A DNA stretch of 11,812 bases from Candidatus Heimdallarchaeota archaeon. Its GTDB lineage: Archaea > Asgardarchaeota > Wukongarchaeia > Wukongarchaeales > JBHIFL01. The translations under genes and the position numbers were made by a program. Position 1 is the first letter of the stretch; the number at the start of each line of letters is the position of its first letter. Positions 397 through 11,780 of the stretch are shown here, in pieces. The notes under the pieces are model-generated. The model did not search any database, was not told where the DNA came from, and worked only from the letters and a program-made list of their open reading frames with translations. The DNA is taken from assembly GCA_046761065.1 (NCBI GenBank), contig JBHIFL010000109.1, positions 1 to 11,812 of the forward strand, written 5' to 3'.

Positions 397-777
397 ATGG
401 AAAGAAAAGATATTAGCGAAAAGGCCATGTGCGGAGTCGTGTCCATTCATAAAGATATGGTTGACAATGTTAAAAAAATTATGAAGGCAGAAGAAATTAT
501 AACCCGTCTTGCGGAAACCTTCAGTGCTTTATCTAATCCCACAAGAGCTAAAATAATCTTTGCTCTTTTAAACGAAGAGCTATGTGTTTGTGACTTGGCT
601 CATCTAATTGGCCTGTCTGCTTCAGCTATTTCTCATCAATTACGCATTTTGAGAAACTTAAGAATTGTGAAATACAGGAAAGACGGGAAAGTCGTTTACT
701 ATTCTCTCGCAGACAAACATATAGAAAACTTATTCAATCAGGGATTGGAGCATGTTGAAGAGAACAAAATCTCTTAG
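397..777 (+). CDS. ArsR/SmtB-family metal-sensing transcriptional repressor (SmtB/ZiaR/BxmR/CadC-like; Zn/Cd type)
   Basis: 126 aa. Motifs FSALSNPTR, ELCVCDLA, SAISHQLRILR and VYYSL. N-terminal C12/H18 (alpha3N ligands) and alpha5 motif D-K-H-x10-H-V-E-E. Confidence 0.95.
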   Translation: MERKDISEKAMCGVVSIHKDMVDNVKKIMKAEEIITRLAETFSALSNPTRAKIIFALLNEELCVCDLAHLIGLSASAISHQLRILRNLRIVKYRKDGKVVYYSLADKHIENLFNQGLEHVEENKIS

Positions 778-791
778 AGGAATGAACTGAA

Positions 792-1250
792 TTGATCAAA
801 AAAATATCGAACAAAATAAAAGTAAAATTTACGCCTTTAGTTTTAATTTCTACTTTTATCATCATCCTGCAGGGGGCAACAGCGAATCTTGTTGTGTGCT
901 TTGGGGATGACGGTCACATTAATATTGAAACCGCACATTATGGTGTCTGTTGTCCCACTGTTAAAGCTTCTTTGCCAGAATCTCACTCCAGTTATTCTTT
1001 TTTAGGGAAATCCTTCAGCAAAAATCGCTGTCTTCCCTGTAGAGACATCGCCATATCAAATAATAATCTAGAACAGAGTATTGTTCCTGTACAAATAAAA
1101 ATAAAATTGATAAAAACGCTTCTGCTTGCAGCCTTCACCTGCCAAATATCTCAATATACAGAGATCGCATCCGAAGGGCTGCTTCCCTCGCCACCGCATG
1201 CAAGTAATTCCATACTTGCATGCCTTAATTCCATCGTACTCCTTATTTAA
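792..1250 (+). CDS. Cys/His-rich exported hypothetical protein upstream of the czcC-like gene (CzcI/DUF2946-like position; possible leader peptide)
   Basis: TTG start with GAGGA about 10 nt upstream. Basic N-terminus plus hydrophobic segment. Motifs VVCFGDDGHINIE, CC, CLPCRDI and C-terminal PSPPH...LACLNSIVLLI. Fills the gap between the repressor and czcC on the operon strand. Confidence 0.75.
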   Translation: MIKKISNKIKVKFTPLVLISTFIIILQGATANLVVCFGDDGHINIETAHYGVCCPTVKASLPESHSSYSFLGKSFSKNRCLPCRDIAISNNNLEQSIVPVQIKIKLIKTLLLAAFTCQISQYTEIASEGLLPSPPHASNSILACLNSIVLLI

Positions 1251-1381
1251 TTCCTTCAAAAAATCTGGATCGCTAGCAAAGTTCAGCGATTAAGCTTATT
1301 TTTATCTGTTATGTTCAAAGAACATTTAGTACTGAAATGAGCAGAACCGAGGGATCAGAAGCACATATTAGGAGGATTTTA

Positions 1382-2764
1382 ATGTATTTGAAAGGTTCAA
1401 CACTTCTTGGAATCTTTTTGATGGTTGGGCTAACTGGTTGTGTTACTCCCCAGTTGGATGTGGCTTGGCCAGAGCCACGCCCCTTAGGAAAAGACTTTAC
1501 CACATACCGTCCGCCTCATGAACCATATATAGCTGATTCAAAAGCGCTTCAGCTTGAAGAGCCCACTGGCGACCTCTCCTTGCGCCAAGCGCTTTCTCTT
1601 GCACTCATGAAGAATCCTGAATTAGCAGCTTTCTCCTGGGAGGTTCGGGCAAAAGAGGCACTAACTCTGCAAGCCGGGCTTCTTCCTAATCCTGAAGTGG
1701 GGGTTGAGACAGAGAACTTCGGAGGATCTGGGGCTTTCCAGCGTTTTGACGCATCAGAATCTACGATCCAACTCAGCCAGCTGATTGAACTGGCTGGAAA
1801 ACCCTCCAAACGGAGGCGAGTCGCAGCTCTTGAGCGGGATTTGGCTGGATGGGACTATGAGACTAAGCGTTTAGATGTTCTTACTGATGTGACTAAGTCT
1901 TTTATTGATGTTCTTACTGCACAAGAGCGGCTGGAAGTGATTAAAGAGTTGGTACGTCTTGCCGAGCAAGTTTTTACAACTGTTTCAGAGAGGGTCAAAG
2001 CAGGCAAGGTTTCACCTGTAGAAGAGACAAAGGCGGGGATTGCTCTGGCATCCACACGAATTGAACTGGACCGAGCTAGCCGAATGCTAGAAGCCTCCAG
2101 GAAAAGTCTTGCTGCCACTTGGGGCAGCACTTCTCCTGCCTTCAAAAAAGTCGTCGGTGCTCTTGAAGCTGTTTTCCCTATTCCCCAAGCTGAGCAATTA
2201 TACCGTCAGATTTCAAAGAACCCAGATTTGGCTCGGTGGGTTGTGGAGATGGATCAGCGCCGTGCAGCTGTGAAACTGGAGGAGGCCAAGAGGATTCCCG
2301 ATTTAACTGTAAGCGGTGGCGTGCGGCGATTAAATGAAACTAATGACAATGCTTTTGTTCTAGGGATATCCATCCCTATTCCTGTTTTTAACCTTAATCA
2401 GGGAGGAGTCCTCAAAGCCCGGTATCGACTTGCAAAAGCAGAAGAAGAGCGCCGGGTTATCGAGGTGCGAGTTCGTACAGAACTGGCAGAGACTTATCAA
2501 ACTCTTTCCGCTGCTTATGCAGAGGTAACAGCTCTAAAAAATGATGTACTCCCTGGAGCACAGAGCGCCTTTGAAGCTGCGAGCGAGGGATATCGTCAGG
2601 GCAAATTTGGCTTTTTGGATGTTCTCGATGCCCAGCGAACACTCGTTGAAGCAAGGAGCCAATATATTGAGGCCCTTAATGCATACCATAAGGCAGTTGC
2701 GGATGTGGAAAGGCTTATTGGAGAGCGATTAGAGGATATTGAAGATATCGGGGAACAAAAATGA
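1382..2764 (+). CDS. czcC: TolC-family outer membrane efflux protein, CzcC-like (lipoprotein)
   Basis: Start moved to ATG 1382 (AGGAGG at 1370-1375; signal MYLKGSTLLGIFLMVGLTG-C, lipobox LTGC). OEP motifs LSLRQALSLALMKNPEL, AGLLPNP, GISIPIPVFNLNQG and YRQGKFGFLDVLDAQRTL. Symbol is family-level. Confidence 0.93.
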   Translation: MYLKGSTLLGIFLMVGLTGCVTPQLDVAWPEPRPLGKDFTTYRPPHEPYIADSKALQLEEPTGDLSLRQALSLALMKNPELAAFSWEVRAKEALTLQAGLLPNPEVGVETENFGGSGAFQRFDASESTIQLSQLIELAGKPSKRRRVAALERDLAGWDYETKRLDVLTDVTKSFIDVLTAQERLEVIKELVRLAEQVFTTVSERVKAGKVSPVEETKAGIALASTRIELDRASRMLEASRKSLAATWGSTSPAFKKVVGALEAVFPIPQAEQLYRQISKNPDLARWVVEMDQRRAAVKLEEAKRIPDLTVSGGVRRLNETNDNAFVLGISIPIPVFNLNQGGVLKARYRLAKAEEERRVIEVRVRTELAETYQTLSAAYAEVTALKNDVLPGAQSAFEAASEGYRQGKFGFLDVLDAQRTLVEARSQYIEALNAYHKAVADVERLIGERLEDIEDIGEQK

Positions 2765-2777
2765 AAGGAGAAATATG

Positions 2778-4001
2778 ATGGACCGTAAAAAACGAAAGAT
2801 AGTTATTGCTGTTGCATTTGGAGGAATTGCAATACTAGCCATTTTTTTCATGCTTCTAAGAAATCCGAACGAGCCTGTTGCTGAGGCTCAGGAACAACAC
2901 TCTCTAGATGAAGGAGAAGAACACAGCGAGGAGAGAATTGTCCATCTGACACCAGAACAGGTCAGTGAGCTGGGGATCACGATAGAACCCCTGCAATTGG
3001 GAAATGTAAGTTCATCCATTCAGCGACCTGCGACCGTCTTATTTAACCCGGACCGAACAGTCAAGATCGGACCCAGAATTTCCGGGAAAGTTGAACGGGT
3101 CATCGCGGACCTTGGAATGATGGTTAAGCGTGGTGATACACTGGCGGTATTGAGCAGTGTGGAACTGGGAAAAGTAAAAGCAAACTATCTTGCCCAATTG
3201 TCCAAATATGAAACGCAGAAAGCCAGTTATGACCGTGAGAAGGCGCTATACGAGAAAAAGATCAGCAGTGAAGCCGAATATCTGGAAGCCAAATCCAGAT
3301 TCCAGGAAGCCGAATCAGAATTGCGCTCGGCAAATGAAACGCTCCAATTGTATGGAATCTCCCCTGAAGCGGTAGAAAACGCCGAATCACCATCAACAAC
3401 CCCCCTGTCCTATTTTTATCTCAAGAGTCCAATTAGAGGGATTGTGCAAGAACGGAATCTGGCTCCCGGAGAAACCCTTTCGCCTGAAGATACTCCCATC
3501 CACATTGTCGATTCCCGACAGATGTGGGTAATGATTGATGCCTATGAACGGGATATCGCCGTCCTTCAGACCGGACAGCAAATGGAACTAACTGTAAAAA
3601 GCCTTCCCGGGAAAATTTTTGGCGGTAAAGTGAATTGGATTTCCCAGTCACTGAATAAAGAAACTCGTACATTACGAGTCCGAGCGCTGGTAAAAAATCC
3701 TGATTTACTGTTGAGAAACGGCATGTACGGCACAGCCCATATACTAAATGAGACGGAAAAAGGCAAGCCCATCGTTCCGGTCAATGCAGTCCAAACCATT
3801 GGTAATGAAAAAGTAGTGTTCGTGCCCGGCGACGAAGCGGGGAGTTTTCGCCCGGCGCCGGTGGTTCCCGGCTCTGAGAACAACGGCTGGGTAGAGATTG
3901 CTTCCGGACTTCAACCAGGAGCAAAAGTCGTCACTGAAGGCGCTTTTCATTTAAAAGCCATCCTGACGGCGCGAACCCGAAGTGCGGCTCATGGACACTA
4001 A
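2778..4001 (+). CDS. czcB: Efflux RND periplasmic adaptor (MFP), CzcB/CusB-like
   Basis: AAGGAG at 2765-2770 precedes ATG 2775/2778. N-terminal TM anchor, His/Glu linker, lipoyl halves (GPRISGKV...VKRGDTL; LKSPIRGIV), ETRTLRVR, C-terminal GLQPGAKVVTEGAFHLK...AHGH. Symbol is family-level. Confidence 0.93.
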   Translation: MDRKKRKIVIAVAFGGIAILAIFFMLLRNPNEPVAEAQEQHSLDEGEEHSEERIVHLTPEQVSELGITIEPLQLGNVSSSIQRPATVLFNPDRTVKIGPRISGKVERVIADLGMMVKRGDTLAVLSSVELGKVKANYLAQLSKYETQKASYDREKALYEKKISSEAEYLEAKSRFQEAESELRSANETLQLYGISPEAVENAESPSTTPLSYFYLKSPIRGIVQERNLAPGETLSPEDTPIHIVDSRQMWVMIDAYERDIAVLQTGQQMELTVKSLPGKIFGGKVNWISQSLNKETRTLRVRALVKNPDLLLRNGMYGTAHILNETEKGKPIVPVNAVQTIGNEKVVFVPGDEAGSFRPAPVVPGSENNGWVEIASGLQPGAKVVTEGAFHLKAILTARTRSAAHGH

Positions 4002-4037
4002 ACGAGAAAGTAAATTTCAAATTCTTTGGAGGACTGC

Positions 4038-7000
4038 ATGATTGAACGTATTGTGAAATTATCCTTGCGAAACCAGCTCATGATCATTGTGCTGGTCATC
4101 GGTCTCGCTCTTGCCGGTTATTGGGCGTTACGGGAGGTGCCAATTGATGCATTTCCTGATGTTACACCGCCGATGGTACAGATTTTTACCGCCAGTCCCG
4201 GTCTATCTCCGGTAGATGTGGAAACCCAGATCAGCTATCCCATCGAAATCTCTATGTATGGCCTTCCCAAGCTGAAACGGGTCCAGAGCACTTCTATCTT
4301 CGGGCTTTCCCGGGTGAATATCTATTTTGAAGATGGCACCGACATATACTTTGCCCGGCGGCTGGTAATGGAGCGTCTGGCAAAAGCGCGGGAAGCCATC
4401 CCGGAGGGGCTGGGCGAACCGGAACTGGGTCCGCTGACCACCGGACTGGGTCAGGTGATGATGTACACTCTCCGAAATAAAGACGGCTCTAATCACGATT
4501 TAATGACCTTGCGCACCGCCCAGGACTGGATTGTCAAACCGCGTCTGCGAACCATTCCGGGGGTGACGGAAGTCCTTTCGGTGGGAGGCTACGTCCGGCA
4601 ATTCCAGGTGAATGTGGATATGAATGCGTTGCTGGCGCGAAATTTAACCCTGGCAGATGTCCGCAAAGCGCTGGTCTCAAATAATCGGAATGTGGGCGCG
4701 TCTTTTATTGAACGCGCCGGAGAGGAATTTCTGGTGCGCGGCTACGGTTGGGTCCGCCCGGAAAAACAGGGACTGGAAGATATACGAAATATTATTGTGT
4801 CCGAGAAAAACGGCATCCCGGTCACAGTGGGGCAAATCGCTGCGGTTGAATTCGGACCCGAAATTCGGCGGGGCACTATGGTGGCTGACGGAGAGGAAGC
4901 GGTAGGAGGATTCGTGTTGAAACTGTACGGAACCAATACCAAGATACTGCTGGACCGGATTGAGGAGCAAGTCGAATCAATCAATGAGGCGCTGCCCGAA
5001 GGGATGGAGCTTGTTCCGTTTTATTCTCAGGCAGAGCTAGTAGAAAAAGCGGTGGGAACCGTGGAGTCCGCATTACTGGAAGGGGCGGTGCTGGTGCTGA
5101 TTTTTCTCTACCTGTTCCTGGGAAATATCCGCTCCACGCTCATTGTCATTGCCACTCTGCCTTTATCCGCCCTGATTGCTTTTATCGGCATGAAAGCCGT
5201 GGGTCTGTCCGCCAATTTGATGAGTCTTGGCGGCCTGGCGATCGGCATCGGCATGATGGTGGATGGCGCCGTTGTGGTGGTAGAGAATATCTTCCGGCAC
5301 ATTGAGGAACACAAACACACCGGTGAAGAGATATCCATCGTCCGTCTGATCAGTGAATCCACTCGCGAAGTTGCCAGACCGGTGGCGTTCTCCATCTCCA
5401 TTATTATCATTGTGTTTCTGCCGTTGTTTACCCTGCAGGGCACCGAAGGGCTGCTGTTTTCGCCCATGGCTTACACCATTGCATTTGCTTTGATCGGCGC
5501 CCTTTTGCTGGCGCTTACCATGGTACCCGTAGTGTCCAGTTTTCTTTTTCGGATTGATATGAAGCATAAGGAGCCGCGACTGGTTGGCTGGTTGAAACGG
5601 CTCTACCGCCCGGTGCTGCGAAAAGCGGTGCAGCATCCGGTGCGGGTGGTTGTCACAGCGGTTGTGTTGCTGCTGGTGAGCCTGGCTTTATTTCCTTTTC
5701 TGGGGACCGAATTTGTCCCTACCCTGCGGGAAGGAACCATCATGGTGCGCTCCACGCTTCCGCCCGGAGCCAATCTCTCTACCGCGGTTGACTATGCCAA
5801 ACGGATTCAAACCACGGTTCAGGAATTTCCGGAAGTTAGAGTGGCTTATTCCAGGGTGGGCCGGGCAGAAGTAGGCGGCGACCCCGAACCGGTGAATGTA
5901 GTTGCCAGCATCATTACCCTTAAGCCGCTGGAGGATTGGGAGTCGGGGAGAAACTATGAAGAATTGCAGTCAGCTATTGCTGAGAAAATCCAGGATGAGG
6001 TGCCTGGACTGGCAAATAATATATCTCAGCCCATTCAGTTGCGAACCGATGAATTGATGACCGGTATCAAAGCCCAGGTGGCGATCAGCATCTTTGGCGA
6101 CGATCTGGATAAATTAGCCAGCATTGGCGAACAAATTCAGGATATTTGCCGGAACACTCCCGGTGCGGTGGACGTGCGGATGCAACAACAGAGCGGCAAA
6201 TCCCAGATTCTGGTTCGCCCCGACCGGCAGGAGTTGGCGCGGCTGGGAATTTCCATCGACGACTTCCTGCAAACCGTGGAAGCAGGCATTGGTGGGGTGA
6301 CTGCCGGGCAGGTATTTGAAGGCATCCGCAGATTCGATGTGTATTTGCGCCTGCAGGAAAACCAGCGCAATCGGTTGGACCTGATTCAGGAGCTGCCCAT
6401 TCGCACCGCTGCCGGACAGATTATTCCGCTAAGCCAAGTGGCTGATTTGGATGTATTCGTAGGACCCAAGATGATCTCCCGAAATAAAGCCAGCCGACGA
6501 ATTTTTGTCCAGCTCAACGTTCGCGGTAGGGATATGGGAAGCGTGGTACAGGACATCCAGCGATCTGTGCTGCAAAATGTCGATATGCCGCCAGGATATT
6601 TCGTGGAATATGGCGGGCAGTTCGAGAACCAACAGCGAGCAATGCGACGCTTGTATATTGTGGTTCCCATCACTTTGGGACTGATCTTTCTCATGCTGTT
6701 TTCTGCCTTTGGCAGCCTGCGCTACGCCACCCTGATTTTCTTTAATGTGCCATTTGCGGTTATAGGTGGGATTGTATCTTTATTTATTTCAGGACTGTAT
6801 CTCTCGGTACCTGGAGCAGTAGGATTCATTGCCGTGTTTGGCGTGGCAGTATTGAATGGTGTCGTTTTAGTGGATTACATCAACCAATTGCGTGCAATCG
6901 GCATGGAAATCTCTGAAGCAGTATTGACCGGGGCAGAACGACGCCTCCGACCGGTATTGATGACGGCTTCGGTAGCGATTTTGGGGTTGATTCCGTTGCT

Positions 7001-7148
7001 GATTTCCAATGATATCGGATCCAATGTCCAGCGTCCGCTGGCGGCAGTGGTAGTAGGCGGGTTGATTACTTCGACCATGCTAACCCTGGTGGTGCTGCCC
7101 AGTATTTACAAGTGGTTTGCAGTCCCCAGGAAAGAAGTGGAATTATAA
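4038..7148 (+). CDS. czcA: CusA/CzcA-family heavy-metal efflux RND permease
   Basis: GGAGG at 4028-4032 precedes ATG 4038; 1036 aa. Motifs PIDAFPDVT, NLMSLGGLAIGIGMMVDGAVVVVEN, YGGQFENQQRA, GFIAVFGVAVLNGVV, RLRPVLMTA and VQRPLAAVVVGG. Symbol is family-level. Confidence 0.96.
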   Translation: MIERIVKLSLRNQLMIIVLVIGLALAGYWALREVPIDAFPDVTPPMVQIFTASPGLSPVDVETQISYPIEISMYGLPKLKRVQSTSIFGLSRVNIYFEDGTDIYFARRLVMERLAKAREAIPEGLGEPELGPLTTGLGQVMMYTLRNKDGSNHDLMTLRTAQDWIVKPRLRTIPGVTEVLSVGGYVRQFQVNVDMNALLARNLTLADVRKALVSNNRNVGASFIERAGEEFLVRGYGWVRPEKQGLEDIRNIIVSEKNGIPVTVGQIAAVEFGPEIRRGTMVADGEEAVGGFVLKLYGTNTKILLDRIEEQVESINEALPEGMELVPFYSQAELVEKAVGTVESALLEGAVLVLIFLYLFLGNIRSTLIVIATLPLSALIAFIGMKAVGLSANLMSLGGLAIGIGMMVDGAVVVVENIFRHIEEHKHTGEEISIVRLISESTREVARPVAFSISIIIIVFLPLFTLQGTEGLLFSPMAYTIAFALIGALLLALTMVPVVSSFLFRIDMKHKEPRLVGWLKRLYRPVLRKAVQHPVRVVVTAVVLLLVSLALFPFLGTEFVPTLREGTIMVRSTLPPGANLSTAVDYAKRIQTTVQEFPEVRVAYSRVGRAEVGGDPEPVNVVASIITLKPLEDWESGRNYEELQSAIAEKIQDEVPGLANNISQPIQLRTDELMTGIKAQVAISIFGDDLDKLASIGEQIQDICRNTPGAVDVRMQQQSGKSQILVRPDRQELARLGISIDDFLQTVEAGIGGVTAGQVFEGIRRFDVYLRLQENQRNRLDLIQELPIRTAAGQIIPLSQVADLDVFVGPKMISRNKASRRIFVQLNVRGRDMGSVVQDIQRSVLQNVDMPPGYFVEYGGQFENQQRAMRRLYIVVPITLGLIFLMLFSAFGSLRYATLIFFNVPFAVIGGIVSLFISGLYLSVPGAVGFIAVFGVAVLNGVVLVDYINQLRAIGMEISEAVLTGAERRLRPVLMTASVAILGLIPLLISNDIGSNVQRPLAAVVVGGLITSTMLTLVVLPSIYKWFAVPRKEVEL

Positions 7149-7177
7149 AACAACGAACAAAATTTTAGGAGTAAACC

Positions 7178-7513
7178 ATGAAACAGATAAAAGCATTTAT
7201 TCGTCCCAATATGAGAGATGAAGTTATCGATGCAATCGAAAGTCTTCCCCATGTTCCGGGCCTCACGGTGAGTGAGGTCCGCGGATGGGGGCATCCGAAG
7301 GGTGGAGGTCCAGCAGAACTGACGATACGCGTTAAATTGGAAATTATAGTTTCGGATGATGAGGTGGAAATGGTGGTGGACTGTATTGTAACACATGCCC
7401 GTACAGGCGAAGGCCATTTTGGAGACGGAACTATTTTTATCTCTCCGATCAACGAAGCTGTGCGGATAAGGAACGGTGATCGGGGAGAACAGGTTGTCCG
7501 GCCTAAGGAGTAG
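7178..7513 (+). CDS. PII-family (GlnB/GlnK-like) protein of the metal-efflux-associated type
   Basis: AGGAG RBS. Motifs MKQIKAFIRP, GLTVSEVRGWG, KLEIIV and ARTG..GDG.IFISP...AVRIR.G..GE. T-loop short and lacking the uridylylated Tyr. Confidence 0.92.
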   Translation: MKQIKAFIRPNMRDEVIDAIESLPHVPGLTVSEVRGWGHPKGGGPAELTIRVKLEIIVSDDEVEMVVDCIVTHARTGEGHFGDGTIFISPINEAVRIRNGDRGEQVVRPKE

Positions 7514-7542: not shown

Positions 7543-9690
7543 ATGAGTGACAAAAAAGAAACCATCATGAAAATCAGAGGAAAAGAAAGCTGTCTGCGTT
7601 TGTATGTGGAAGGAATGGACTGCAGTGATGAGGCTTCAATTATCGAGAAAAGATTGGGCAACTTTGAGGGAATCGAGGATATTAAATTCTATTTAGTCTC
7701 CCGGGAATTAGAAGTTAAATATGATCCCAAGGTTATCAAGCCTTCTGAGATAATCTCTTCAATAAATCAGATCGGTATGAAGGCGAGCATAAAGGCCACA
7801 AGCAGGGATGAAATAACCTTTTGGGAGAAAAGAAAACATTTGATATCAACAGTGGCTTCAGGTGTTCTCGCCCTTACTGGAATTGTTCTTTCAAGATTAG
7901 AAATTAGCCAAAACATAACCATTCCAATTTTCGTATTAGCCATAATAAGCGGAGGCTTTTATATCGCCCGTAAAGGTATTGCTGCCTTACGCACTTTCGG
8001 CCTGGATATAAACTTTCTGGTGAGTGTTGCGGTCATTGGCGCGGCATTAATTGGAGAATGGATTGAGGCAGCTGTGGTCGTATTTCTTTTCTCTCTTGCC
8101 CAGTTGTTAGAAACGTATTCAATGGATCGAGCCAGGAATGCAATCCGCTCCTTAATGGAGCTCTCACCCCAAAGGGCTTTGGTTAGAAGAGATGGCCAAG
8201 AGGAAGAAGTTGATGTCAACCTGGTCAAAATTGGTGAAGAAATTATCGTAAAACCAGGAGAAAAAATTCCGCTGGATGGTAAGGTTATCAAGGGTAATTC
8301 ATACGTCGATCAGTCCCCGATAACTGGCGAGTCAATGCCTGTTGAGAAAAAGCCGGGAGATATGGTATTTGCTGGGTCTATCAATCAAAAGGGTTCGATG
8401 GAAGTAAGAATAACACACGCGGCAAGAGACACGACTTTAGCCAGGATTATCCACATGGTAGAAGAAGCCCAGGCCCAAAAAGCTCCCTCACAGAGTTTTG
8501 TCGATAAATTCGCTAAATATTACACGCCAGCAGTTGTTACAAGTGCAATTCTAGTGGCTACTGTTCCTGTCTTATTTTTTAATCAACCATTTATGGACTG
8601 GATATATAGAGCCTTAGTGCTTTTGGTTATTTCATGTCCCTGCGCCTTGGTGATATCTACTCCTGTTTCTATTGTCGCTGGTCTAAGCCAGGCAGCGAGG
8701 AAAGGAGTGCTCATTAAAGGAGGAGTTCATCTGGAAAATGCGGGGAAATTAAAGGCTTTGGTCTTTGATAAGACAGGGACCCTTACCAAAGGAAAAGCTG
8801 AGGTCATCGATATTATTCCTCTAAACAATCATAACAAAGATCAAGTTTTAAGAATAGCAGCCGGTATCGAATCAAGGTCAGAGCATCATTTAGCCCAGGC
8901 TATTCTGACAAAGGCAGAAGAGTGGAAATTGAAAATTCCAGAGCCTTCTGATTTTCATTCCATTACCGGCAAAGGTGCTCGAGCGAAAATCGATGGGGAA
9001 TGTTTTTACATAGGAAGTCATAGGCTTTTTGAGGAAAAAAAATTCTGTACCCCTGAGCTTGACCAGAAAATGGGAGAGCTGGAAAAGGAAAGTCAATCCG
9101 TGGTCATTGTTGGCAATTCAAATCGAGCCCTTGGCATTATCGTCATCTCAGATGCGATACGACCTAATGGCAAACCAACTATTGATGAGCTGCGCAATCT
9201 CGGCATCCGGGAAATTGCAATGCTTACGGGTGATAATCAGGGCACTGCCAGGGCTATTGCAAAAAAACTGGGAATTGACGCATTTAATGCCGAACTCTTA
9301 CCTCAAGACAAGGTGAAAGCTATCAAGGATTATCTGAAAAAATACGATAAATTGGCAATGGTAGGCGATGGAGTTAATGACGCTCCTGCTCTAGCAACTT
9401 CAACAATAGGCATTGCCATGGGAACAGCGGGAACGGATGCAGCTTTGGAGACAGCGGACATTGCTCTTATGAACGATGATTTGTCAGGGGTTCCATTTGT
9501 TATAAGCTTAGGCAAAAAAGCTCTCTGGATTATCAAAGAAAATATTTCCCTGGCTTTATTAATCAAGGCTGTTTTCTTTGCCTTAGCCATACCAGGATTG
9601 GCTACATTATGGATGGCTGTTTTTGCAGATATGGGTGCTTCACTTATCGTCATATTTAATGGAATGAGGTTATTTAAATTTGGGAGATAA
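7543..9690 (+). CDS. cadA: Heavy-metal translocating P-type ATPase, P1B-2 (Cd/Zn/Pb; CadA/ZntA-like)
   Basis: N-terminal HMA domain (GMDCSDE), TGES, SCPCAL, DKTGTLT, MLTGDN and GDGVNDAP. TM7 Lys (LLIKAVF) and TM8 Asp (FADMG) are diagnostic of P1B-2. Confidence 0.95.
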   Translation: MSDKKETIMKIRGKESCLRLYVEGMDCSDEASIIEKRLGNFEGIEDIKFYLVSRELEVKYDPKVIKPSEIISSINQIGMKASIKATSRDEITFWEKRKHLISTVASGVLALTGIVLSRLEISQNITIPIFVLAIISGGFYIARKGIAALRTFGLDINFLVSVAVIGAALIGEWIEAAVVVFLFSLAQLLETYSMDRARNAIRSLMELSPQRALVRRDGQEEEVDVNLVKIGEEIIVKPGEKIPLDGKVIKGNSYVDQSPITGESMPVEKKPGDMVFAGSINQKGSMEVRITHAARDTTLARIIHMVEEAQAQKAPSQSFVDKFAKYYTPAVVTSAILVATVPVLFFNQPFMDWIYRALVLLVISCPCALVISTPVSIVAGLSQAARKGVLIKGGVHLENAGKLKALVFDKTGTLTKGKAEVIDIIPLNNHNKDQVLRIAAGIESRSEHHLAQAILTKAEEWKLKIPEPSDFHSITGKGARAKIDGECFYIGSHRLFEEKKFCTPELDQKMGELEKESQSVVIVGNSNRALGIIVISDAIRPNGKPTIDELRNLGIREIAMLTGDNQGTARAIAKKLGIDAFNAELLPQDKVKAIKDYLKKYDKLAMVGDGVNDAPALATSTIGIAMGTAGTDAALETADIALMNDDLSGVPFVISLGKKALWIIKENISLALLIKAVFFALAIPGLATLWMAVFADMGASLIVIFNGMRLFKFGR

Positions 9691-9691
9691 A

Positions 9692-9976
9692 ATGAAAATA
9701 GAATCTAAACAATTATCCTCTGTAATAAATGACTTGCTGGAGGGCGCTTTTAAGATGCATGCTTCAAATGTAGTCCGTAAAGAAGCATTTGATCTTAATG
9801 ATAGTTTTTTTATTCTTCTTTTTGGAGATTTTTTAGGCCTTCCGAATCCTTTCTCCTATTATGCCCTGGAGCTGCTTCCGTATTTAGCAGATGAACTTGA
9901 ATCCTGGGAAAGAAGGATTCTGGCAAGAAAAAGTATTATTGCTGAGAAGTTCGGACAGTATGATTTTTGCTGTTAG
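9692..9976 (+). CDS. Small 'CC-star'-type protein (cory-CC-star-like), C-terminal Cys-Cys
   Basis: ATG 9692 is 1 nt after the ATPase stop, with GGGAG RBS at 9682-9686; 94 aa. Core LLFGDFLGLPNPFSYYALELLPYL...ESWERR and terminal DFCC-stop. Lies directly before an ArsA-family ATPase. Confidence 0.8.
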   Translation: MKIESKQLSSVINDLLEGAFKMHASNVVRKEAFDLNDSFFILLFGDFLGLPNPFSYYALELLPYLADELESWERRILARKSIIAEKFGQYDFCC

Positions 9977-9987
9977 GTTTTAAAAGA

Positions 9988-10947
9988 ATGTTCTTTGAGA
10001 AAATGGCTGAACGAAATTTTATATTTTTTGCTGGCAAAGGCGGTACAGGGAAAACTACCTGCAGCGCCTGTTTTGCTTTGAATTTAGCCAAGAAAGAGAG
10101 CAAAACACTCCTGGTTTCAACAGATATGGCTCACTCCCTTTCTCATATTTTTGAGAGGAAGATTGGAGATAAAGAGAAAAAGATAGCGCATAACCTATGG
10201 GCAATCGAAATAGATCCTCAAAAAGAAGCGAAGAGATATATGAAAAGAATAAAAGATGCAATCGGTGAAGTAGTAAGCAGCGTGATAGTGGAGGAAATAA
10301 AAAAGCAAATTGATGCTGCTTATCTTTCTCCAGGAGCAGAAGAAACAGCTATATTCGATAAATTCATTGAGCTTATGAAAAAGATTAACAATCCTTATAC
10401 AAAAATTGTCTTTGATACTGCTCCTACCGGCCATACCCTCCGTCTTTTAACCTTGCCTGAGCTTATGGAAGACTGGATTGAAAAACTGCTCAAAAAAAGA
10501 CTTCAGGTAATGAAGTTAATGAAAATGGCCTCGAGGATAGATGAGGCGCTTAGAGAAAAAGTCAAGCACGATCCCATAATTGAGATATTGAATAAAAGAA
10601 AAGAAAAACTAACCTTAGCAAGAAATTATTTGCTAGATAAAGAAAGTAGCTGTTTCATATTTGTTTTAGATGCGGAGAGGCTGTCAATATTAGAGACAGC
10701 TGAAGCAATCTCACTTCTGAAAAGCCATGGAATTTTTGTTGATGGAATTATAGTCAATAAGATACTGCCTCCTACTAAAGATAAATTTTTTACAAAAAGA
10801 AAGAAGCTACAGGAAGAATGCCTCAAAGAAATTAAATCAAAATTTAAAGGTCTGTTTCTGGGATATTTTCCACTTTTAGAATCAGATATTCAGGGAAGAG
10901 AAGTTTTAACAAAAATGAAATTCCAGCCTTATTGGAAAAATCCATAA
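9988..10947 (+). CDS. Single-domain ArsA/GET3/TRC40-family ATPase
   Basis: Deviant Walker A GKGGTGKTT, STDMAHSL, EIDP, SPGAEE, signature DTAPTGHTLRLL and IVNK. About 319 aa, i.e. one nucleotide-binding domain. Start ATG 9988 (10003 possible). Confidence 0.93.
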   Translation: MFFEKMAERNFIFFAGKGGTGKTTCSACFALNLAKKESKTLLVSTDMAHSLSHIFERKIGDKEKKIAHNLWAIEIDPQKEAKRYMKRIKDAIGEVVSSVIVEEIKKQIDAAYLSPGAEETAIFDKFIELMKKINNPYTKIVFDTAPTGHTLRLLTLPELMEDWIEKLLKKRLQVMKLMKMASRIDEALREKVKHDPIIEILNKRKEKLTLARNYLLDKESSCFIFVLDAERLSILETAEAISLLKSHGIFVDGIIVNKILPPTKDKFFTKRKKLQEECLKEIKSKFKGLFLGYFPLLESDIQGREVLTKMKFQPYWKNP

Positions 10948-10958
10948 GGGGAAGTTAA

Positions 10959-11780
10959 ATGAAAAAATATTTGCTTATATTCGTGATTTTGAGTTTGGCT
11001 TTTTGCAAAGGAGAAAATGCATCAAACCATAAGATTAATCTTTCTGGTGTGATATCTTTAAATCAAAACAAAACCACTGATATTTCCTCCCTTGTCGAAG
11101 GAAAAGTTTTTTCTTTATTGGTTGATTTGGGAGATAGGATTCAAAAAGGGCAAACCCTTCTTTTGCTTAATTCTCGTGAATTTTCTCAAGCGAAAGCAGA
11201 TTTTTTCCGATCTTTGACTAATTTGAACATAGTTCGCAAAGAATTTGAAAGAGCTATATTATTATTAAAAAAGAAGGATATTGAAGACGAGGAATTTTTA
11301 AGAATAAAAGATGAATATTCTAAAGCCATGAATCATTATGACGCTTCTAAGTCTAATCTTCTCTCATTAGGACTTGTGGATTCTCAAATAGAATCGTTAA
11401 TAAATAAGCATGAATCTTTTAAGAAGAAGTTAAATTTATCTAAATTATGTGAGCCATATTTATCTATCATTTCTCCAATTTCCGGAACAATCATATTCAG
11501 AGATTTCATCATCGGAGAACAAGTTGAGGCCGAAAAAATACTTTTCACAGTATCGGATTTATCCTGTTTATGGGCAGTTTTTGATGTTAGAGAAAAAGAT
11601 TTGCCTTTTATAAAAATAGGGAGTGAGGTGAGAATAAAATCCACACTGTATCCAGACAAAGAATTTGAAGGAAAAATTACTTACATAAGCAACAAGATTG
11701 ATGATAGATTGAAAACTTCAAAGATCAGAGCAGATGTTAATAATGAGAATAATTTATTACCCAGGTTTGACAGTTTATAG
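10959..11780 (+). CDS. Second CzcB-like RND adaptor (MFP), compact, lacking the membrane-proximal domain; frameshifted in the last beta-strand (possibly degenerate)
   Basis: Signal peptide with Cys16 (SLAF-C), SSLVEGKV...GDRIQKGQTL, alpha-hairpin, IISPISGTII, VSDLSCLW and FEGKITYIS. The expected LxPG-motif continues in the +1 frame at 11761-11790 (PGLTVYRYI-stop). Confidence 0.8.
   Translation: MKKYLLIFVILSLAFCKGENASNHKINLSGVISLNQNKTTDISSLVEGKVFSLLVDLGDRIQKGQTLLLLNSREFSQAKADFFRSLTNLNIVRKEFERAILLLKKKDIEDEEFLRIKDEYSKAMNHYDASKSNLLSLGLVDSQIESLINKHESFKKKLNLSKLCEPYLSIISPISGTIIFRDFIIGEQVEAEKILFTVSDLSCLWAVFDVREKDLPFIKIGSEVRIKSTLYPDKEFEGKITYISNKIDDRLKTSKIRADVNNENNLLPRFDSL

Follow-up and report, generated by a model that had tools for sequence, protein, structure and literature searches.

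The 11.8-kb window analysed here is the entire contig G000:C109 (11,812 nt) of a metagenome-assembled genome (MAG) binned as a Candidatus Heimdallarchaeota archaeon, and it carries ten genes, all in the same orientation (+). Our subject is two adjacent genes near its end, encoding a 94-aa protein with two C-terminal cysteines (P0001) and the single-domain Get3/ArsA-family ATPase that follows it (P0002). The pair is an intact, selected copy of a widespread and self-contained two-gene module which, as read from gene order and motifs, is built in this lineage into a Zn/Cd/Pb efflux operon behind a pump of the CadA/ZntA type. The features of the window are as follows.

397..777 (+): arsR, a CadC/SmtB-like metalloregulator of the ArsR/SmtB family (NF033788, 95.3 bits against a cut-off of 55; PF01022)
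792..1250 (+): 152-aa Cys-rich open reading frame (ORF) between arsR and czcC, with no Pfam or NCBIfam match
1337..7513 (+): czcC-like outer membrane factor, czcB adaptor, czcA resistance-nodulation-division (RND) pump and P-II-like protein (ORFs and P-II family matches)
7543..9690 (+): P1B-type heavy-metal ATPase of the ZntA/CadA kind (Zn/Cd/Pb; TIGR01525 632.5 bits, TIGR01512 535 bits, PRK11033 627.8 bits)
9681..9686 (+): GGGAGA ribosome-binding site of the small gene, within the 3' end of the P1B gene (from the sequence)
9692..9976 (+): P0001, 94-aa DUF7990/'CstX' protein with C-terminal Cys-Cys (from the translation and the PF25952 matches of its homologues)
9968..9973 (+): terminal Cys codons TGC (9968-9970) and TGT (9971-9973), followed by the stop codon TAG at 9974-9976 (from the sequence)
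9988..10947 (+): P0002, single-domain Get3/ArsA-family ATPase, 319 aa (TIGR00345, PF02374)
10959..11780 (+): lipoprotein-type RND/HlyD periplasmic adaptor, 273 aa, the final gene of the contig (TIGR01730, 99.1 bits; PF16576, HlyD_D23, 136.1 bits)

The stop codon of the pump gene (TAA, 9688-9690) is separated by 1 nt from the ATG of the small gene at 9692, the small gene is probably translationally coupled to the pump gene, and a further gap of 11 nt leads to the ATG of the ATPase gene at 9988. A preliminary description of this DNA had reported a protein ending in Cys-Cys-stop 1 nt past the pump stop, with its ribosome-binding site inside the pump gene, then after 11 nt a one-domain ArsA/GET3 ATPase and an RND adaptor, with no arsB, acr3, arsC or arsD. 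The sequence and translation bear out the first of these statements and the TIGR00345, PF02374 and TIGR01730 matches the second, and profile scans of the ten ORFs of the window found no ArsB, Acr3, ArsC or ArsD, and no CstA.

The gene upstream of the pair is identified by its motifs as a P1B-2 (Zn/Cd/Pb) ATPase: the transmembrane region contains SCPC (SCPCALVISTP) and the last helix AVFADMG, there is one HMA domain, and the TIGR01512 score of 535 bits stands against a cut-off of 313.5. The metals are our assignment, taken from the SCPC and ADxG motifs on established knowledge and not from an assay. The sole HMA domain reads GMDCSDE, with CxxE in place of CxxC; this odd domain recurs as GMDCSEE in the pumps of two relatives, L009 and L090, which in addition carry a canonical N-terminal HMA domain (CADC) that is absent from the pump of the window. 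The ArsR protein, the presumed controller of the operon, combines an N-terminal Cys with ELCVCDL in helix 3 and, close to its C-terminus, DxHx10HxxE, and we take ELCVCDL with the N-terminal Cys, and DxHx10HxxE, to be the two metal sites of CadC/SmtB-type Zn/Cd/Pb sensors. Because the module lies directly behind the pump in an efflux operon under a CadC/SmtB-like regulator, the pair is probably made when a thiophilic metal is sensed.

The small protein P0001, which contains ...FGDFLGLPNPFSYYALELLPYL... and has the C-terminal end ...QYDFCC, is assigned by homology to DUF7990 (PF25952), the 'CstX' of Castillo & Saier 2010. The domain is precomputed on its homologues P0003-P0010 (65-97% identity), and the Atlas clusters nearest to P0001 are 98-100% DUF7990; P0001 itself had no match in the Pfam library searched, which is a library without PF25952. 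The Cys-Cys-stop ending of the cory-CC-star family is present in P0001, and the preliminary description had proposed a check against the model of that family. The protein proved not to be an equivalog member: NF041419 (cory-CC-star) matches it with an E value of 1.6e-15 and 56.9 bits, below the curated cut-off of 80, whereas the genuine members L165, L161 and L163, which come from a Corynebacterium (L165), a spirochaete and a gammaproteobacterium, score 135.8, 115.9 and 134.9 bits. A search of 1.8 billion representatives returned 167 relatives of P0001 at E values up to 1e-3. No plasmid match was found for P0001, none of its close relatives showed DUF7990 naturally fused to a longer protein, and a literature search on CC-star and DUF7990 yielded nothing. 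Weak cory-CC-star matches (E about 1e-8) occur in open frames of 211-380 aa at L198, L202, L203 and L206 (genomes G437, G205, G298 and G256), about 4 kb from a CstA-CstX-ArsA cluster; these are high-G+C genomes with unreliable ORF maps, and the frames may be a fused or extended form of DUF7990.

P0001 is predicted to be a helical hairpin with a flexible tail. The AlphaFold2 model (mean predicted local distance difference test score, pLDDT, of 83.6) has helices at 5-48, 55-78 and 82-89 and a free tail, and the conserved GLPNPF turn joins the first two. A clear transmembrane segment is absent, the peak hydropathy over 19 residues being 1.25, under the usual transmembrane level; the hydrophobic stretch stops about 30 residues before the C-terminus and a W-x-R-R motif comes next.

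The partner, P0002, is best described from its matches and motifs as a Get3-like ATPase and not an arsenite ArsA. It scores 287.5 bits with TIGR00345 (cut-off 135) and 281.6 bits with PF02374, and carries the P-loop GKGGTGKTT (deviant Walker A) and a switch II DTAPTGHT within FDTAPTGHTLRLL. Its insert LQVMKLMKMA is Met-rich and lies in a region that aligns gap-free to archaeal Get3 in the sequence alignment, and among solved structures P0002 is nearest to the archaeal Get3 homologues 3zq6 and 3ug6, aligned over the full length with E values of 7.7e-67 and 9.5e-64. The CxxC zinc site of Get3 is absent, with KDKFF opposite the CEFC/CDFC of 3zq6/3ug6, as it is in 143/143 partner ATPases examined. 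The placement in the ArsA/Get3 family in the preliminary description is sound by TIGR00345. P0002 is no arsenite ArsA: it has one domain, not two, and reaches 151.6 bits with TIGR04291 (arsenite-stimulated ArsA) against a cut-off of 650. In the alignment to 1f48, ArsA Cys113 falls on Tyr112 or an adjacent gap opposite LSPG, with no Cys at 110-120, Cys422 falls on Gly, and Cys172 is beyond the aligned stretch. Since P0002 has no ArsA-type metalloid site, a hand-off in the manner of ArsD to ArsA is unlikely. An identity with the mycobacterial BagA/BagB was rejected (NF053622, 61.6 bits against 400; NF053621, 30.3 against 521). By its features and the taxa of its relatives, P0002 fits with the bacterial Get3 homologues that PMC6593721 calls 'Group 9', a group that is uncharacterised.

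We also considered the partner's Cys-Cys tail as a substitute for the missing Get3 CXXC and discarded the idea as a general rule, given that no partner ATPase has the CXXC, whether its partner is CC-tailed or not. In one Synergistota clade (L017, L019, L031, L032, L092 and L094), the hairpin protein ends in a single Cys (KAAQYDFC) and the ATPases carry a Cys where Get3 has its CxxC (PEGC, in VVPEGCGDFW); sister clades have neither feature. The single-Cys tail and the PEGC Cys may have co-varied here, and this is a hint, from one event only, that the tail lies near the ATPase dimer interface.

The distribution of the module was surveyed in 160 fetched loci (80 metagenomic and 80 from species-representative genomes), a census in which relatives of P0001 are over-represented and which does not sample DUF7990 at random; loci in high-G+C genomes such as L215, where greedy ORF maps are unreliable, were left out. 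A one-domain ATPase comes directly after the small gene in 150/150 loci with at least 600 nt downstream, and the conserved unit is the pair of DUF7990 and ATPase, not CstA. Within 5 kb, CstA was found in 49 of the 160 loci and a P1B ATPase in 8; 44 had neither, with at least 3 kb of flank on both sides, and 59 were too short to judge. Merging at an ATPase identity of at least 92% left 32 loci with CstA, 6 with P1B, 33 with neither and 21 short. CstA was thus absent within 5 kb in 52/101 loci with informative flanks (39/71 after near-identical loci were merged), and only about one third to one half of the loci have it nearby, so that the claim in print that cstX is never without cstA (Castillo & Saier 2010, PMC2963123) does not hold in this larger sample. 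The preliminary description had given the order cstA, CC-star, arsA as the normal one, which is true of the genuine cory-CC-star members (in the Corynebacterium locus L165, CstA is directly upstream) and is not the rule across the family.

The neighbours scanned in the loci with neither gene and in those with short flanks are unrelated to one another and include UvrD, DNA ligase, ATP-binding cassette (ABC) transporters, Usp and nitroreductases, among others. The idea that stand-alone CC-tailed loci are metal-related was abandoned, their 52 neighbouring proteins being heterogeneous. When the phylum of G197 was sampled evenly, the family turned up in 20/401 genomes, with the loci mostly CstA-linked. 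In the class to which the genome of L090 belongs, any relative was found in 9/150 genomes, and at least five of these nine have the native CstA-CstX-ArsA order, their hairpin being distant and Cys-free. In addition, a protein of about 180 aa with no Pfam or NCBIfam match adjoins CstA in 39 CstA-linked loci (e.g. L011:9161-9703, minus strand) and may be the 'CstY' of Castillo & Saier.

The terminal Cys-Cys is invariant in all relatives ending in QYDFCC or QFDFCC. Across the family, C-termini with the two cysteines include, besides QYDFCC, DRWGDFCC, WSTYDWCC, GKHDWCC and an actinobacterial SPLxxxxCC, and many relatives end without Cys (DLDP, DLDA, HLHGL and REKDLTDALA among others). The Cys-Cys state changes at least seven times on the ATPase tree and does not track context, and the tail therefore looks like a labile add-on and not the core of the module. 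A pairing of the Cys-Cys tail with the absence of CstA was set aside because the tree offers too few independent contrasts.

Eight distinct sequences from Synergistota (Acetomicrobium and relatives), mostly CstA-linked, end in ...QFDF-TGA-TGT-TAA/TAG (gene ends at L034:5400-5445, L068:254-299, L070:2583-2628, L072:955-1000, L074:1278-1323, L076:10199-10244, L096:255-300 and L120:10199-10244). With TGA read as selenocysteine (Sec), ...AAQFDF-U-C aligns position for position with the ...GQYDF-C-C of the window. A G+C-rich RNA hairpin begins 11-12 nt past the TGA codon, with two of its six pairs changed on both sides (compensatory), and SelA scores above its cut-off in three of the four Sec-Cys genomes tested, all of which points to the Synergistota DUF7990 as a probable selenoprotein variant with a terminal Sec-Cys. 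Ordinary gene calls cut these proteins two residues short. The presence of Sec at the same position in relatives is good evidence that the penultimate Cys is reactive, and with Sec-Cys encoded at these two positions the vicinal-thiol tail, to which the preliminary description had given a role, is chemically meaningful.

The placement of the pair beside a metal pump recurs. The order arsR-P1B-CC-arsA is found in L009 and in L090 (Candidatus Aminicenantes JdFR-78); L008, from an independent metagenome, runs from the 3' part of the pump gene through the pair to the adaptor gene; L010 starts inside the small gene and continues with the ATPase and adaptor genes. L053 has the order arsR-P1B-(153 aa)-CC-arsA, L047 has the same order with a split pump gene, and in L073 and L118 the order is pair-arsR-P1B. 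The maximum-likelihood tree of 98 ATPases separates three metal-linked clades: that of the window (with L008, L009, L090 and the remnant L179; SH-aLRT support 99), L047/L053, and L073/L118. The P1B state requires a minimum of three changes on this tree and ArsR adjacency a minimum of five. Every directly adjacent P1B gene is of the SCPC...AVFADxG type with an ArsR gene beside it; a homologue of the window's ArsR (50-79% identity) precedes the P1B gene in L009, L090, L179, L047 and L053 and comes after the pair in L073/L118. L116, of the third clade, has arsR, an SBF/Acr3-like carrier and a methyltransferase at 1-5 kb, and in L214 arsR follows directly after the pair. The arrangement is accordingly not a one-off, which the preliminary description had named as a way in which its reading could fail, with four further assemblies in the window clade (L008, L009, L090 and the remnant L179) and three clades overall.

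The junction with the pump gene, of 1 nt or with a 4-nt overlap, is conserved across homologues of 68-98% identity, and pump, hairpin and ATPase give the same relationships among the window, L009 and L090. For hairpin, ATPase and pump, the ratios of nonsynonymous to synonymous substitution rates (dN/dS) in the window clade are 0.03-0.18, 0.09-0.15 and 0.04-0.06, respectively. Purifying selection acts on the pair, and the relaxed selection that had been raised against it does not obtain.

Other parts of the island are less constant. The czcCBA + P-II block has about 50% G+C against 31-42% in the rest of the contig, and these gene types lie between arsR and P1B in the window and downstream of the ATPase in L090; the island is a mosaic, since the block differs in G+C and, in L090, in position, and the block seems movable within it. 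The 152-aa ORF at 792-1250, with one N-terminal hydrophobic segment and several Cys including a vicinal pair (HYGVCCPT) and CLPC, had no homologue by BLAST in any fetched locus. The adaptor gene also follows the ATPase gene in L008 and L010. L010, which matches the 3' part of the window with 97% identity in the hairpin end, 86% in the ATPase and 68% in the adaptor, extends further downstream and has at 3080-5200 a second P1B ATPase with a His-rich N-terminus and a CPH motif, so that the island may cover more than one metal.

The contig is most likely a bacterial contaminant of the archaeal bin, to judge by its genes for an outer membrane factor and an RND tripartite system, by its lipoprotein signal peptides and by its nearest relatives, which are in Aminicenantes MAGs (P0007, L090); the estimated contamination of the MAG is 8.2%. 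A second, different version of the module lies on contig C16 of the same MAG (L004, G000:C16:14000-33999), with ORFs at 9297-9620, 9642-10658, 10672-11697, 11720-11992, 12300-14081 (-), 14510-15214 (-) and 15320-15610. It comprises two Cys-free DUF7990 paralogues (ends DSFY and DMFY), two tandem Get3-like ATPases and a 90-aa ORF, together with a convergent CstA, a 234-aa ORF without Pfam match and an adjoining HdrA/MvhD-like protein, and may be the archaeal genome's own copy.

We tentatively favour a reading in which the pair would be an accessory to the pump under metal stress, P0002 being a chaperone akin to Get3 and P0001 an adaptor that bears a thiol. The conserved hydrophobic turn of the hairpin (FGDxLGxPxPxxYYxLELLPY) would dock in the Met-rich groove of the ATPase dimer, and at the membrane the hairpin would be engaged and released by the ATP cycle. 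The reactive end would be the flexible dithiol at the C-terminus, a selenol-thiol in relatives, which would bind a soft metal or switch by oxidation. The operon would be induced by metal and the pair would help under thiophilic-metal stress, acting as a protective or assembly chaperone in the manner of Get3, with the thiol sensor or ligand on its adaptor, and not as an ArsD-like carrier that supplies metal to a site on the ATPase.

Several observations weigh against this reading. To our knowledge the members of the module have been treated by comparative genomics alone, and we know of no bench study. The predicted fold of P0001 has no informative match: Foldseek returned nothing at E < 0.001, and in a VIA-align comparison with 48,161 chains Z reached 4.7 at best, with generic coiled coils throughout. 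The contexts of the family are mostly CstA or unrelated housekeeping genes and not metal-related, and no Cys column conserved in the ATPases tracks the Cys-Cys tail of the partner. The metal-linked clade L073/L118 (with L116) has no Cys tail (WAEFDFFG), so that the tail is not the basis of the metal link. In L179 (G062:C14, 9692-9967), arsR-P1B and the pump/small-gene junction (GGGGAGATAAAATG) are kept, and a deletion at about residue 80 has taken the last 14 or so residues of the hairpin, including the two cysteines, and the whole ATPase gene; since G062 retains arsR-P1B after this loss, the pump does not need the pair. Both G041 (the genome of L090) and G062 have a CstA gene on another contig, without the pair, and the orphan CstA of G041 makes an action of the pair in trans on CstA possible. 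The preliminary description had placed a P1B ATPase in the position of an absent CstA, which is correct at the locus and for the locus only, because a relative's genome that can be searched, G041, has this orphan CstA elsewhere.

An alternative that we consider unlikely is that DUF7990 is itself the client, a small re-entrant or monotopic membrane hairpin delivered post-translationally by its dedicated Get3-like ATPase. It would then become an accessory subunit of the polytopic transporter encoded beside it, which is CstA in the majority of genomes and the P1B pump in the window, comparable with the small tail-anchored regulators of eukaryotic P-type ATPases. The obligate adjacency of the two genes, the Met-rich insert in a Get3-type ATPase, the hydrophobic segment about 30 residues from the C-terminus with W-x-R-R after it, and the occurrence of the module beside two unrelated large transporters are all as this would have it, and Castillo & Saier predicted one transmembrane segment for CstX (PMC2963123). 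However, the hydropathy of the segment is under the transmembrane threshold and conserved Asp, Glu and Pro lie within it. Moreover, no transporter of the reference set occurs within 5 kb in 44 of the 101 informative loci (33/71 merged), and the neighbours scanned there are heterogeneous, though two other carriers, a major facilitator superfamily (MFS) protein and a DUF554 protein, are present.

It is likewise improbable, in our estimate, that the pair is a passenger with a function unrelated to metals (service to an orphan CstA in trans, or general stress protection) in metal islands that merely collect genes. The CstA genes elsewhere in G041 and G062, the deletion of the pair from G062 with arsR-P1B retained, the mosaic island (G+C of the czc block and its position in L090) and the prevalence of contexts unrelated to metals agree with such a role. 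Set against them is the capture of the module on three independent occasions, every time right beside an SCPC-type P1B gene under ArsR control and in the same orientation as that gene, where chance adjacency would be expected to give about 0.2 events in about 25 independent neighbourhoods (a rough estimate, with no formal test), as well as the conserved pump/small-gene junction and the purifying selection on the pair.

The preliminary description had favoured an ArsD-like metallochaperone, in which the tail thiols capture Cd, Zn or Pb, the ATPase loads or unloads this carrier and the metal is passed to the P1B pump, and we hold this to be quite unlikely. Tails of the Cys-Cys and Sec-Cys kind are typical soft-metal or redox arms, with Sec penultimate in relatives; the module has been captured three times beside pumps for thiophilic metals; and the single HMA domain of the window's pump has GMDCSDE in place of CxxC. 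Yet the Cys-Cys tail is older than the capture, the sister clade L011/L088 being CC-tailed (QFDFCC in L011) and L011, with L012 and L089, being CstA-linked, and the L073/L118 clade is metal-linked without a Cys tail. The ATPase is without equivalents of ArsA Cys113 and Cys422, the hairpin is not ArsD-like in its predicted fold and found no match in the Pfam library searched, and the seven or more changes of the Cys-Cys state do not follow context. That the Cys-Cys/Sec-Cys arm is a cytoplasmic device for soft-metal capture and hand-off, driven by the ATPase and supplying Zn/Cd/Pb to the P1B-2 pump, is likewise quite unlikely, and we know of no dedicated metallochaperone for this class of pump; were it so, the widespread CstX/Get3-like module would deal at the membrane with the thiophilic ligands of any transporter beside which it is encoded.

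No function is established for the Get3-like ATPases, which are widespread in bacteria and archaea, and DUF7990/CstX is a fixed small partner of theirs that was noted by comparative genomics in 2010. To this the present analysis adds the pair as the conserved unit, its repeated control by metal sensors beside pumps for thiophilic metals, a reactive tail and the absence of the Get3 zinc bridge, and it corrects the published statement on the dependence of cstX on cstA. An unexplained pair thereby becomes a system with measurable phenotypes, namely metal tolerance, metal binding and ATPase stimulation. The preliminary description had thought the system possibly undescribed, but the module is already on record as the cstX/arsA-homologue pair of Castillo & Saier 2010 (PMC2963123) and as Pfam DUF7990; what is new is the metal-operon context and the CstA-free majority of loci.

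Among known systems, the closest are the 26 cstA-cstX-arsA clusters described by Castillo & Saier 2010 (Int J Microbiol 2010:187373, PMC2963123). These cstA-cstX-(cstY)-arsA clusters have, like the window, a protein of about 90 aa right before a single-domain ArsA homologue of about 330 aa, and the window proteins are homologous to those of the CstA-linked loci L165, L139 and L011. They differ from the window in that their operons were reported to be without arsR, whereas the window locus has no cstA, a P1B ATPase in its place and arsR at the head of the operon. The cory-CC-star family (NF041419) shares with the window the DUF7990 core, the terminal Cys-Cys and an ArsA-like ATPase directly downstream; unlike its members, the small protein of the window has no upstream CstA and scores under the cut-off, and its tail sequence differs from theirs, as the last eight profile positions, the two cysteines included, are unaligned.

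P0002 resembles archaeal Get3 (3zq6 of Methanothermobacter; 3ug6/3ug7 of Methanocaldococcus) and the 'Group 9' bacterial Get3 homologues of Bodensohn et al. 2019 (PMC6593721) in its single domain, P-loop and DTAPTGHT, and departs from Get3 in being without the CxxC that bridges the Get3 dimer through zinc. The fixed partner of ATPases of this type is DUF7990, and no Get1/2/4 partners of theirs are known. The ArsD-ArsA pair is similar in having a small vicinal-Cys protein before an ArsA-family ATPase in a metal(loid) operon with an ArsR-family regulator; unlike it, the window has a one-domain ATPase without the metalloid Cys and no arsB or acr3, and P0001 is a predicted all-helical hairpin, whereas ArsD has a thioredoxin-like fold with Cys12, Cys13 and Cys18.

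Finally, we liken the tail to the C-terminal Cys-Sec and Cys-Cys arms of thioredoxin reductase (GCUG) and MerA (the C-terminal Cys pair), with which it would share a flexible vicinal dithiol that is swapped for a selenol-thiol in relatives. In contrast to those arms, it is borne by a 94-aa hairpin without a redox domain, and the order in the relatives is Sec-Cys, at the very end of the chain.

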